A DNA stretch of 64,000 nt from Chrysemys picta bellii (taxonomy: Eukaryota), in assembly GCF_011386835.1 (NCBI RefSeq), contig NC_088792.1, positions 30,194,001 to 30,258,000 on the forward strand, written 5' to 3'. The notes under the pieces were generated by a model. The model was not told the DNA's origin and did no database searches. It saw only the letters and a program-made list of their open reading frames with translations. This document shows, one piece after another, positions 23,343-28,110 of this stretch. A program made the translations under genes and the position numbers. How positions within the stretch are numbered: the stretch's first letter is position 1; each line of letters starts with the position of its first letter.

Positions 23343-23418
23343 TGACATTTTAAACTGTTAACTACCTGGGTTGAATAAGGCTATAAGTAGCTCCGACCCC
23401 ACCCAACCTTTGTTTATT
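23343..23418 (+). repeat. 76-bp direct repeat, left copy (target-site duplication of the CR1)
   Basis: TGACATTTTAAACTGTTAACTACCTGGGTTGAATAAGGCTATAAGTAGCTCCGACCCCACCCAACCTTTGTTTATT, identical to 28035-28110. Confidence 0.97.
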
Positions 23419-23477
23419 ACTCATAGACTCATAGACTTTAAGGTCAGAAGGGACCATTATGATCATCTGGTCTGACC
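23419..23477 (-). promoter_or_regulatory. CR1 3' RT-recognition stem-loop and octamer tail
   Basis: Minus strand GGTCAGA-CCA-GATGATCATAA-TGG-TCCCT-TCTGACC-TTAAA-GTCTATGA-GTCTATGA-GT. The 7-bp GGTCAGA/TCTGACC arms are at 23471-23477 and 23442-23448. Confidence 0.85.
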
Positions 23478-23792
23478 CCCTGCATGCTGCAGGCCATAAA
23501 ACCGTCCCTACCCCTTCCCTGGACTCTGCTGTTGAAGTCTCCAATCCTGTTTTTAGTGACTGCAATCGGCAGAGACCCTCCTGCTAGAGATCCCTGCCCC
23601 ATGCTGCGGAGGAAGGCGAAAAACCTCCAGAGGCTCAGCCAATCTGCCCTGGAGGAAAATTCCTTCCCGACCCCAAATGTGGCGATCAGTAAGACCCCGA
23701 GCATATAGGCAAGAGTCTCCAGCCCGACCCCGTTAGCCATTATACTATTTACCCACCATTGCTTGGCTTTCCTTGACTACTATGTTTTACCA

Positions 23793-26748
23793 TTAAACCA
23801 TTCCCTCCATAAACTTATCTAACTTTATCTTAAAACCAGACAGGTCCGTCGCCCCCACCGTTTCCCTCGGTAGGCCGTTCCAATATTTCACCCCTCTGAC
23901 GGTCAGAAACCTTCGTCTAATTTCAAGTCTGAACTTCCCCACGGCCAGTTTGTATCCATTCGTTCTGGTATCCACGTTAGTACTAAGCTGGAATAATTCT
24001 TCTCCCTCCCTTGTATTAATCCCTCTAATATATTTAAAGATAGCAATCATATCCCCTCTCAGCCTTCGCTTTGTCAGACTAAACAACCCAAGCTCCTCTA
24101 GTCTCCTTTCGTACGACAGCTTTTCCATTCCTCTGATCATCCTAGTGGCCCTTCTCTGCACCCGTTCCAGTTTGAGTTCATCTTTTTTAAACATGGGAGA
24201 CCAGAACTGCACACAGTACTCCAAATGAGGTCTCACCAGCGCCTTGTACAACGGAAGCAGGACCTCCTTATCCCTACTAGATATACCTCGCCTAATGCAT
24301 CCCAAGACAGCATTTGCTTTTTTCACCGCCACGTCACATTGTCGACTCATAGTCATCCTGCGGTCTACAAGAACCCCTAGGTCCTTCTCCTCTTCCGTTA
24401 CTTCTAACCAATGCGTCCCCATCTTGTAACTAAAATTGTTATTAGTCATCCCCAAATGCATCACCTTACACTTTTCACTATTAAATTTCATCTTATTTCT
24501 GATACTCCAATTCACAAGCTCATTCAAGTCTCCCTGCAGGATATCCCTGTCCTCCTCCGAATTTACAACGCCTCCCACCTTCGTATCATCTGCAAATTTT
24601 ATCAGCCCACTCCTGCAATCGGTTCCGAGGTCAGTTATAAATAGATTAAATAAAATGGGTCCCAAAACCGAACCTTGAGGCACTCCACTAGTAACCTCCC
24701 TCCAACCCGACAGTTCACCCTTTAATACAACCCGCTGCATTCTCCCCAGTAACCAATTCCTTATCCACTTCTGGATTTTCATATCGATCCCCATGTTTTT
24801 CAGTTTAACCAATAATTCCTCATGGGGTACAGTATCAAACGCTTTACTGAAATCCAGGTATATTAGGTCCACCGCATTTCCCTTATCTAATAAATCCGTT
24901 ACTTTCTCAAAGAAGGAGATCAGATTCGTTTGGCACGATCTGCCCTTCGTAAAACCATGTTGTAATTTATCGCAATTGCCACTACCCTCCAGGTCCTCAA
25001 CTAGTTTCTCTTTCAGAATTTTCTCTAACACCTTGCACACTACAGATGTTAGACTAACAGGCCTGTAGTTACCCGGATCACTTTTTTTCCCTTTCTTGAA
25101 AATAGGAATCACATTAGCTATTCTCCAGTCTAATGGGACCACCCCCGAGTTTACAGATTCATTAAATATTATCGCTAATGGGCCTGCTATTTCCCGCGCC
25201 AATTCCTTCGATATTCTCGGATGTAGATCGTCCGGTCCTCCCGACTTAGCCCCATTAAGGCGTTCAAGGTTTGTTTCCACCTCGGATACGGTAATCCCCC
25301 ATCCCGAATGCCCCTCTATAGTGGTGCTAGTATCCCTAATACCTTCATTGGCCTCATTAAACACCGATGCAAAATATTCATTAAGATATTGCGCCATGCC
25401 TAGATTGTCTTTAATCTCCTCTCCGGCAATAGACTTCAGCGGTCCCACTTCTTCTTTCTTTGTTTTCTTCCTATTTATGTGGCTGTAAAACCTCTTACTA
25501 TTGCTTTTAATTCCCCTCGCTAGGTCCAACTCTACACGGCCTTTGGCCTTTCTCACTCTATCTCTACATTCTCTGACTTCACTTAGGTACATTTCCTTAC
25601 TGATCCCTCCCCTCTTCCACTCTTTATCCGCTTTCTGTTTTTTCCTAATCGCCCCTTTGAGTCGGTCGCTCATCCAGCTCGGTCTAAATCTCTTGCTTAG
25701 TAATCTTTTTCCCTTTTTTGGAATACAGGCCTCCGACAGCTCATGCATCTTTAACTTAAAGTAATCCCAGGCTTCTTCTGCTTTTAAATCCATTAATACG
25801 TTTGCCCAGTCCACTTCCCTTACCAGTCCCCTTAGTTTGTTAAAATTGGCCTTTTTAAAATTATAAACCCTAGTCTTTGATTTAATTCTGTTACTCCTTC
25901 CATGTATTTTAAACCGAATTAGCTCATGATCACTGGAGCCCAAATTGTCCCCTACTACCACTTCCTCAACAAGGTCCTCACTACTTGCCAGAATCAAATC
26001 TAAAATGGCCTCCCCCCTCGTCGGTTCAGTTACCACTTGATGGAGGAATTGATCAGCAAGCACTTCTAGGAACATCTGAGCCCTGTTATTGCTACTAGCG
26101 TTTGTTCCCCAATCTATATACGTGAAGTTAAAGTCCCCCATAATTACACAGTTTCTGTTAGTAATTACTTTTCTAAACACATTAAATAGTTCCTTATCCA
26201 TATCCTGGGTCGATCCCGGCGGTCTATAGCACACTCCAAGCACTATCCCCGGAGAGGCTCTAGTAGTCCTATTACCCAGTGTGAGTATTGCCCAGACAGA
26301 CTCTGTGTTATCTAATCCATCCACTATTATTTCTTTACAGTTTATTTCACTATTGACATACAAGGCCACCCCCCCCACCTTTACCTTTGTTCTGGTCTTT
26401 CCTAAACAGCGCATACCCCTCCATACCTGTGTTCCAGTCTTGACTGCCATTCCACCACGTTTCCGTTATTCCTACGATATCCGGTTTCAGTTCCTGGACC
26501 AAGAGCTCCAATTCCTCCATTTTATTACCTAGGCTTCTGGCATTGGTGTATAAACACCCTAATGTATGTTGTTTAGCCCGTCTCCCATTAGCAGCACTAT
26601 ATGTTGCGGGCCTCCTTGTGTCCGTCCCCCCTGTCCTTCCTATGTCCAATCTCATCTCCCCGGCTATGTCTCCTCTCCTTTTACTCACCTTTTCCATACT
26701 GGAATCTGGCGTGGAGATTAACTGTGCATCTCCCAACCGTCTCCCCAA
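23793..26748 (-). CDS. CR1 ORF2 (APE endonuclease + reverse transcriptase), broken only by a +1 frameshift in a G8 run at 26369-26376
   Basis: EN motifs LYTNARS, GITETW, MGDFN and SSDH; RT motifs [24 protein letters not shown] and FADDTKV. The 132-aa and 885-aa ORFs join if G8 is read as G7 (KGGGVALYV). First in-frame ATG is at 26697. Confidence 0.93.
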
Positions 26749-26753
26749 ACTTC

Positions 26754-27890
26754 CTAGTTTAAAGCTCTTTTGATTAGATGAGCCAGCCTCCCTCCCAGAA
26801 GTCTATTTCCTTCCCTACTCAGGTGAAGCCCATCCCGCGAGAACAGGTGTCTGTCCCCGAAAGCCTCCCAGTGGCCATACATCCCAAAGCCCTCCTTATA
26901 GCACCACTCCCTTAGCCAACTATTTATTCTCACAATCCTATCAGCCCTTTGCTGCCCTTCCCTTGGAACGGGCAGAATCCCACTAAAGATAATCTGAGCC
27001 TCTATCTCCTTGAGCGTCTTCCCCAGCCTGGCATAATCTCCCTTGATCCTCTCTAACGAGAACCTAGCCGTGTCATTCGTTCCCACATGAAGGATTATCA
27101 AGGGGTTCTTACCTGCTCCTTTTAGGATCCTTTTCAACCGCAGGTCCACATCGCGTATCTTTGCGCCCGGGAGACAGCACACCCTTCTGTTCTCCGGGTC
27201 CGCCCTGGTCACAGGCCTGTCCAATCTCCTCAGTAAAGAGTCACCAATCACATACACCTGCCGTTGCCTGGCAACAGTGCGATCTAGTAATCTAGTCTCC
27301 GATCCCTCTAGTCCTGACCTGTGCCTGTTCCTATCTTCCCTTATGCTCCCCCTTATGCCTTCCTGAATCCTCCCGGGGCCCAGAATTGGTGCTGTCTCCA
27401 TCAACTCCTCCCCTCTCTCTCCTGGACTAGCTGCTCTTCTCTTCTTCCTCACCCTCCCACCTTCAGTCGCCACCTGCTGCCCCTCCACCTCGCTATCCAA
27501 ACACTCGAACCTATTCCTGAGTTCTATTCCCCCCTCACTGGCCCTTCTTTTCCTTGGCCTACTTCTCACAGTCACATGCTTCCACCTCCCATGTTCTCCC
27601 CCCTCCATTCCCCTCTCACCGTCCTCTACCTCTGCCTCTACCTCCGCCACAGGGCATTCTCCTTCAGCCCCCCCTTGCCTTTCCTCCATCAGCTGCTCAA
27701 ACCCCCGCCTAAACTCCACCAGGGTATCTACCTGCATCTGCAGCCCCTTAATCTTTTCCTCCAGTAACACTATCAGGCGACACTTCATACACACATACCT
27801 TTGTTCCAGGTCTCCTGCTAGGACTATATACATACCACAGCTCCCACATGTCGCCATCTGCATTCTGTCTGCTGCTGCTGCTTGGCTCAT
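26754..27890 (-). CDS. CR1 ORF1p, 378 aa (zinc finger, coiled coil, SGNH/GDSL esterase-like domain)
   Basis: ATG at 27890 in GCAGCC-ATG context. C-x2-C-x15-C-x2-C (CGSC...CMKC); heptad segment LLEEKIKGLQMQVDTL; esterase blocks VIGDSLLR, VGTND and DGLHL; ends RALN*. Confidence 0.93.
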   Translation of the reverse strand: MSQAAAADRMQMATCGSCGMYIVLAGDLEQRYVCMKCRLIVLLEEKIKGLQMQVDTLVEFRRGFEQLMEERQGGAEGECPVAEVEAEVEDGERGMEGGEHGRWKHVTVRSRPRKRRASEGGIELRNRFECLDSEVEGQQVATEGGRVRKKRRAASPGERGEELMETAPILGPGRIQEGIRGSIREDRNRHRSGLEGSETRLLDRTVARQRQVYVIGDSLLRRLDRPVTRADPENRRVCCLPGAKIRDVDLRLKRILKGAGKNPLIILHVGTNDTARFSLERIKGDYARLGKTLKEIEAQIIFSGILPVPREGQQRADRIVRINSWLREWCYKEGFGMYGHWEAFGDRHLFSRDGLHLSREGNRLLGGRLAHLIKRALN

Positions 27891-28034
27891 GGCTGCTGCG
27901 GTCCCTGCCCACAGCACCTGGGGGCATGGAGTACAGAACACACCGCGCCCTCCTGCCTCCCCGCTTACCTCCCCCTGCAAACTCCCTCTCAAACTCCCCT
28001 GTTAGCCGCCCTGTTTGCTGCCGCTGCTCGCAGC

Positions 28035-28110
28035 TGACATTTTAAACTGTTAACTACCTGGGTTGAATAAGGCTATAAGTAGCTCCGACCCCACCCAACC
28101 TTTGTTTATT
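28035..28110 (+). repeat. 76-bp direct repeat, right copy (target-site duplication of the CR1)
   Basis: Identical to 23343-23418. Flanking bases differ (a/c before, a/g after), which fixes the boundaries. Confidence 0.97.

Follow-up and report, generated by a model that had tools for sequence, protein, structure and literature searches.

Introduction

How long interspersed nuclear elements (LINEs) translate their second open reading frame (ORF2) is a long-standing question, and the experimental answers, mainly from L1 and SART1, are given by reinitiation. In both human L1 and silkworm SART1 the mRNA is bicistronic and ORF2 depends on the translation of ORF1, by reinitiation or by UAAUG coupling (PMC2881922, PMC5009743; here and below, statements on cited sources refer to excerpts of them). 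The window analysed here is a stretch of 64,000 nt from Chrysemys picta bellii (NC_088792.1, 30,194,001-30,258,000, forward strand), and contains a full-length LINE of the CR1 clade. Its ORF1/ORF2 junction carries a recoding-type signal in a known element, which on sequence grounds we regard as real and deeply conserved. CR1 ORF2 is likely made by programmed -1 frameshifting, giving a fusion of the two proteins (ORF1p-ORF2p).

The closest described elements are the vertebrate CR1 clade LINEs of PMC13343379, which likewise have an esterase ORF1, an ORF2 with apurinic/apyrimidinic endonuclease (APE) and reverse transcriptase (RT), and the same junction in their consensuses. The consulted part of that source does not contain the words 'overlap', 'translation' or 'fused', uses 'frame' in other senses, and does not address the translation mechanism. 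Among other APE-type LINEs, Dictyostelium TRE5-A and TRE3-A are stated to need a -1 frameshift for ORF2 (PMC5911963); they belong to another clade with another ORF1, and their likeness to CR1 rests on this review statement. In Paramecium, a +1 shift or read-through has been proposed (PMC5405496). In its first 300,000 of 449,034 characters, PMC5009743 treats LINE ORF2 under novel initiation and does not mention CR1. No report of CR1 frameshifting was found in the literature searched, which did not include the CR1 papers of 1997 on chicken and turtle or the Repbase reports; these could mention it.

Retroviral gag-pol, the coronavirus infectious bronchitis virus (IBV), and PEG10 share with CR1 an X_XXY_YYZ heptamer that ends the first ORF and a pol-like ORF in the -1 frame; U_UUA_AAC is the IBV site (PMC5009743). 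Unlike in these systems, the CR1 site is hosted by an element without long terminal repeats, and shows neither a pseudoknot or stem found 5-9 nt downstream nor a protease recognized by Pfam. Structural stimulators lie 5-9 nt downstream of the slip site, while the spacers of arterivirus and cardiovirus sites are 11-14 nt, with a protein-bound CCCANCUCC at 11 nt (PMC5009743). These protein-stimulated sites, of PRRSV and of cardioviruses, resemble the CR1 site in having a short conserved homopolymer-rich motif about 10-11 nt 3' and no evident structure (PMC5009743). The CR1 motif, unlike theirs, is G-rich; the position of its G run is conserved, while a trans factor is hypothetical. In contrast to L1 and SART1, with which CR1 would share the dependence of ORF2 on ORF1 translation, UAAUG is absent from the CR1 junction, and an AUG is not conserved there.

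The putative slip site of the window copy

ORF1 of the window copy (378 aa, 26754..27890, minus strand, as are all element features below) has an N-terminal Cys motif and a C-terminal SGNH esterase, and ends in RALN*. It passes the Pfam model Lipase_GDSL_2 with 43.7 bits (cut-off 32.9, E 5.5e-11) and is thus an esterase-type ORF1. Its last codons and stop read GCU UUA AAC UAG; ORF2 lies in the -1 frame. The slippery heptamer U_UUA_AAC (26757..26763) stands in the ORF1 frame and makes up the final two codons, and the UAG stop (26754..26756; UAA or UGA in other lineages) adjoins it directly. Re-reading of the sequence reproduced the positions given by the first-pass annotation (TTTAAAC 26763-26757, TAG 26756-26754), the -1 frame open from 26802 with a 49-nt overlap free of ATG, and the first ATG at 26697 in the context AGT-ATG-G. 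The 5' part of the ORF2 frame (26350..26802) comprises this overlap, a linker, and the start of the endonuclease. Counted from the slip site to endonuclease motif I, the linker is 69 codons long (26557..26763); it is open and fast-evolving, and is predicted to be disordered in a model of a related family (family D, see below).

In the whole ORF1s of families A (that of the window copy), B, and D, with 378, 335, and 355 codons, X_XXY_YYZ occurs in frame only once. Upstream, the -1 frame closes 13, 5, 2, 5, 5, and 3 codons before the slip codon in families A, B, C, D, E, and in the metagenome locus L064, respectively, and this distance of 2-13 codons confines a slip to the end of ORF1. The 1365-aa fusion (378 + 987) foreseen in the first-pass annotation for a repaired copy agrees with the intact copies of family A: three of the four full-length ones fetched are open for 989 codons counted from the slip site.

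Conservation among turtle CR1 families

Families A, B, C, and D were found by protein searches of the turtle genome, and family E by an ORF2 query. The family-A query lacked the nine codons at the ORF1 end; for B, C, and D, ORF1 proteins with their RALN end were used, which favours that peptide, not its codons. Family B is ~53% identical to A across the esterase, C is an older sister of A, and E is an older relative of B. Older CR1 families are undersampled in this set. Duplicate loci were merged prior to counting (from 50 to 49 in B and from 90 to 79 in D), and one locus without anchor (L081) was dropped.

TTTAAAC is present in 30/30 distinct copies of A, 48/49 of B (the other has TTTAAAT), 17/19 of C, and 79/79 of D. 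The endonuclease motif follows in the -1 frame in 26/30, 49/49, 11/19, and 76/79 copies, respectively; in the remaining copies it lies in another frame or a match to the motif was not found, and indels are present in those that were inspected. Of a further set of 30 loci, four lacked an ORF1 anchor and were dropped; TTTAAAC and a stop are found in 23 of the 26 anchored loci, in two cases shifted by one base from the register, and the -1 phase in 20. The linkers of A, B, C, and D differ in length (69, 50, 78, and 55 codons), and in representative copies the stops in frames -1/0/+1 number 0/6/4, 0/2/3, 0/8/8, and 0/1/2. The family phase is -1 in all five families.

The 13 nt GCTTTAAACTAGG (Ala-Leu-Asn-stop-G) show no difference in any of the four pairs compared between family representatives of A, B, C, and D. 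For comparison, with one natural copy per family, the four-fold degenerate residues shared by A and B have the same codon in 8/25 cases, those shared by A, B, and D in 4/24, and, adding C, in 0/21. TTA accounts for 3 of the 77 other Leu codons of the esterase region. The heptamer is kept beyond the need of the protein, synonymous sites between the families being near saturation. Free synonymous variation and a variable phase, both of which the first-pass annotation had set against its own proposal, are not what the families show: the Ala, Leu, Asn, and stop codons are fixed at the nucleotide level over near-saturated divergence, and the phase is -1 throughout.

In this genome, copies with both ORFs intact are numerous in families A, B, and D, so that at least three divergent CR1 lineages were recently active side by side. 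In four family-C loci (L067, L073, L074, and L086) a short direct repeat directly behind the stop has repeatedly lost one of its units; the loss places the endonuclease of L073 and L086 in frame 0 behind UAG. Searches of the turtle genome with lizard-, bird-, and crocodile-like ORF1s returned families B or D again, and a degenerate pattern search for crocodilian-type families gave 0 matches and was uninformative. Scans of viral contigs and genome contigs found only unrelated matches (L087, L168-L170); L066 is likewise unrelated.

The junction in other genomes

An ORF1 profile gave 150 matches; 63 were retained, in which a DGxH-like motif lies 20-45 aa before the end, and the other 87, lacking such a motif near their end, were left out. 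The 63 ends are LN (49), GN (2), KN (1), LK (1), or otherwise (10), with a background of 0.7%. LN, GN, and KN are the ends that match three heptamers listed among the shiftiest (PMC5009743). Homologues with these ends have tail lengths of 24-39, and most homologues have 26 aa after DGxH. Named carriers of LN* are found among turtles and lizards and further include a snake, a frog, a swallow, and a sawshark. The RALN* ending that the first-pass annotation had ascribed to other amniote CR1 ORF1s is borne out for turtles, lizards, snake, frog, and bird. Bird ORF2-frame proteins have FKL at the position of the junction. The metagenome locus L064, a distant relative (29% identity), ends in CCA AAA AAC TAA, an A_AAA_AAC heptamer, and continues in the -1 frame through the endonuclease motif with no Met over 139 codons.

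In the consensuses of the PMC13343379 supplement, TTTAAAC followed by a stop occurs 23 times; 22 of these were shown, and 18 are ORF1 ends by reading, from alligator, crocodile, bowfin, bullfrog, chimaera, rays, sharks, coelacanth, and lizard. The rows are gappy and were scored for heptamer and stop. The stop is TAG in 11, TAA in 6, and TGA in 1. The preceding codon is GCT, GGT, GAT, TGT, TAT, or CTT (one row starts at the motif): the residue before Leu varies, yet its third base stays T. Six synonymous alternatives to the heptamer gave 19 matches in the same supplement, none of them at an ORF1 end, and two further ORF1 ends met there through other terms also carry TTTAAAC.

A different arrangement is seen in a fish L2-like locus (L063:999-2100), where the esterase has a long Pro/Ser tail and ORF2 directly follows TAG in frame 0, an ATG standing two codons further on, pointing to a different translation strategy in this sister clade.

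Start codons of ORF2

The first in-frame ATG of ORF2 (26695..26697), which the first-pass annotation offered as the rival start, is specific to family A and not conserved: it is replaced by ATT in 4/30 family-A copies and in the family-C copy L070. At the position of the family-B linker ATG, GTG is found in 12 of the 26 loci scored and ATG in 10; family E carries GTG there and family D CAT. Families D and E and locus L064 have no Met ahead of the endonuclease. In family D, the linker lacks Met in 70/76 in-phase copies, and in 7/12 full-length copies the frame stays open over 970-973 codons, its first Met being residue 64. A SART1-type UAAUG overlap is not present in families A-D, where the junction reads TAGG or TAGA.

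The consequences of a start at Met64 were considered on an AlphaFold model of the first 300 residues of family D (predicted local distance difference test score, pLDDT, 80), which has a low-confidence linker and the first strand at residues 53-60. In a fold search it matches the TRAS1 and L1 endonucleases with Z 21-23, residue 52 aligning to residue 6 of the L1 endonuclease and residue 60 of APE1 (Z about 21); the L1 endonuclease was reached by profile and fold searches, while single-sequence PDB searches did not reach it. Asn60 of family D presumably corresponds to the active-site residues Asn14 of L1 and Asn68 of APE1, assuming an ungapped strand. Since strand 1 and Asn60 precede Met64, a start there would, according to the model, give a truncated endonuclease. 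The matter bears on annotation: 37/120 database ORF2 proteins begin at a Met inside endonuclease motif I, and so without the first strand.

The region downstream of the heptamer

A GGGG run (26743..26746) begins 10 nt after the heptamer of the window copy and is a conserved candidate stimulator. It starts 8-10 nt after the heptamer in families A-D and 12 nt after it in L064, and a G run at 3-13 nt is present in 14/18 published junctions (PMC13343379 supplement, counted by eye), with a background of 3-7% per 7-nt window. In the 42 nt from +5, 34/42 positions are identical both between A and C and between B and D, while just before the endonuclease the identity is 24/45 (A-C) and 20/45 (B-D). 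Conserved as they are with no synonymous excess, these 42 nt accord better with an element acting at the RNA level than with one of the protein.

Nested folds, G-quadruplex prediction, pseudoknot enumeration, and an alignment fold brought up nothing beyond the controls. A GGAGAU/AUCUCC hairpin (26713..26733), 23 nt after the heptamer, has a pair probability of about 0.9 and occurs in families A and C only, both arms being kept in C. The TGGGGAGA stem of the first-pass annotation does lie 9 nt downstream and can pair, but it is weak (-5.7 kcal/mol versus a minimum free energy of -16.6), and with a pair probability of 0.08, compared to 0.9 for the hairpin, it is not supported as stimulator. Nor is a G-quadruplex: the G-tracts, also listed there, are not predicted to form one. 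The downstream region of the window copy has no folding advantage over shuffled sequences (z -0.9 to -1.3), and no canonical stem-loop or pseudoknot 5-9 nt downstream was found in folds covering up to 120 nt. A weak candidate fold of families B and D with one A-U/U-A swap was not counted, because older B copies break the swapped pair. We infer that a protein-assisted or stop-assisted pause may operate at the CR1 site.

The linker also contains a donor-like hexamer, GTGAGT in 24/30 copies of A (26688-26683 in the window), GTAAGT in 49/49 of B and 74/79 of D, and GTAAGA in 11/19 of C. It could be a U1 site or chance. Contigs of four public runs show no joint at this site; such contigs cannot show expression.

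Proposed mechanism and alternatives

The fixed codons, the constant phase, and the non-conserved ATG support the -1 frameshift and ORF1-ORF2 fusion proposed in the first-pass annotation, at the level of sequence. In the mechanism envisaged, tRNA-Leu and tRNA-Asn would slip jointly at U_UUA_AAC, giving the transframe sequence RALN-LGSLGR, during a pause caused by slow termination at the adjacent stop together with an element starting with the G run about 10 nt downstream. The predicted product in family A is the 1365-aa fusion beside a majority of free ORF1p, and the frameshift rate would set the ratio of ORF1p to RT. The fusion would tether endonuclease and RT to ORF1p assemblies, as Gag-Pol does, and, as no protease domain was found by Pfam in the window element, it would likely stay uncleaved. 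If true, retrovirus-style recoding operates in a major LINE clade, ORF2p bears the esterase ORF1 N-terminally, and factors with which the host restricts frameshifting become candidates for the control of LINEs. A wider reading, which we offer only tentatively and hold to be possible rather than likely, is that the whole clade of CR1 elements with esterase ORF1 (from sharks to birds, and also more distant relatives among animals) produces an uncleaved fusion of the Gag-Pol kind with no folded stimulator, the adjacent stop and a G run 10 nt downstream bound by a trans factor setting and regulating the rate. This factor could be a host G-rich RNA-binding protein or ORF1p itself.

Several results weigh against frameshifting. 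No structural stimulator is seen (fold z-scores -1.6 to +0.7, no G-quadruplex): the best H-type pseudoknots are equalled by 3/30, 6/30, 2/30, 10/30, and 1/6 control windows, and the consensus fold of B, D, and E reaches just -2.5 kcal/mol, with 1/8 pairs changed on both sides. The linker has no synonymous excess in the -1 frame by dN/dS-type (nonsynonymous to synonymous) counts. Four fish L2-like loci (L061-L063 and L065, labelled from their sequence) are devoid of the site, and of the 63 homologues ten end otherwise and one in LK. The homologue search is mildly biased, its profile itself containing the LN end, and the supplement was searched by the motif itself, within the first 400 characters per consensus. 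The linkers of A, B, and C each have some in-frame AUG, so that reinitiation could also occur there. Finally, human L1 ORF2 is reported to be AUG-independent (PMC5009743), so a missing AUG alone is no proof of fusion.

That last property is the basis of an alternative which we consider unlikely: an AUG-independent termination-reinitiation of the L1 type, with restart at a near-cognate or arbitrary -1 codon and the conserved sequence acting as the termination/reinitiation signal instead of a slip site. L1 and SART1 are coupled to ORF1 translation (PMC2881922), near-cognate codons stand early in most linkers (ACG at codon 5 in D, TTG at codons 4-5 in A and E), and a structural frameshift stimulator was not found. 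The near-cognates vary by family, however, with none in the first 25 codons of B besides its ATG, and the exact X_XXY_YYZ, its swap for A_AAA_AAC, the GN and KN ends, and the fixed -1 phase are left unexplained. Reinitiation at the first in-frame AUG (26697 in family A) has a good Kozak context in its favour, and A, B, and C all have such an AUG before the endonuclease; it is nevertheless very improbable as the general route, given the ATT variants in A and in L070, the GTG of E and CAT of D where B has ATG, and the intact ORF2s of family D and the sequence of L064, neither with a Met before the endonuclease. At most it would be a side route in family A.

Hardly any weight is left for the view that LN* is kept for the function of the ORF1 protein, with codons and phase inherited by descent. 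The well conserved C-terminal helix region and the 26-aa tail of most homologues would agree with it, but the synonymous positions do not vary although their background is near saturation, LN turns up again with tails of 26, 27, 32, and 39 and gives way to GN or KN, and the third base of the preceding codon remains T while the residue changes. It also gives family D no route to its endonuclease, and we take it as largely refuted already. Least credible is splicing, either from an upstream AUG to ORF2 at a CTAG|G acceptor or by removal of ORF2 from the donor-like site of the linker. CTAG|G is acceptor-like, and the donor-like hexamers, of the form GT(A/G)AG(T/A), lie 34-79 nt after the stop in A-D; on the other hand, several lineages have TAA or TGA as their stop, a polypyrimidine tract is not present, and 0/177 distinct copies break at the donor-like site.

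The CR1 element of the window

The element (23419..28034) comprises the esterase ORF1, the ORF2 with APE endonuclease and RT, an octamer-repeat 3' tail, and a flanking repeat. CR1 clade LINEs have a short tandem-repeat 3' tail rather than poly(A), and an octamer repeat, instead of poly(A), forms the 3' end of the window copy. By its domain content and the likeness of its junction to published rows labelled LINE/CR1, the element is classed as a CR1 clade LINE. Its closest named proteins come from turtles (88% identity). Family A is young, the best 150 genome matches to its esterase region being 99-100% identical.

The 3' part of ORF2 (23793..26465) encodes the endonuclease (Exo_endo_phos_2, E 7e-14) and the reverse transcriptase (RVT_1, E 5e-38). 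The ORF2 frame is broken in the window copy at a run of eight G (26369..26376). The run is a hot spot for frameshifts: among 34 family-A loci it has a length of 7 in 21 loci, 8 in 5, and 6 in 1, with 7 loci unscored, and its length differs in public sequencing runs as well.

The element is flanked by a 76-bp direct repeat, a probable target-site duplication, with the 5' copy at 28035..28110 and the 3' copy at 23343..23418, directly after the tail. The two copies match perfectly and are very long for an apparent target-site duplication; in 20 other full-length copies the longest flank stretch in common is 10-18 bp. Elsewhere in the window (50371-49034, minus strand) lies an older, 5'-truncated CR1-like RT fragment, 49% identical to the window ORF2.

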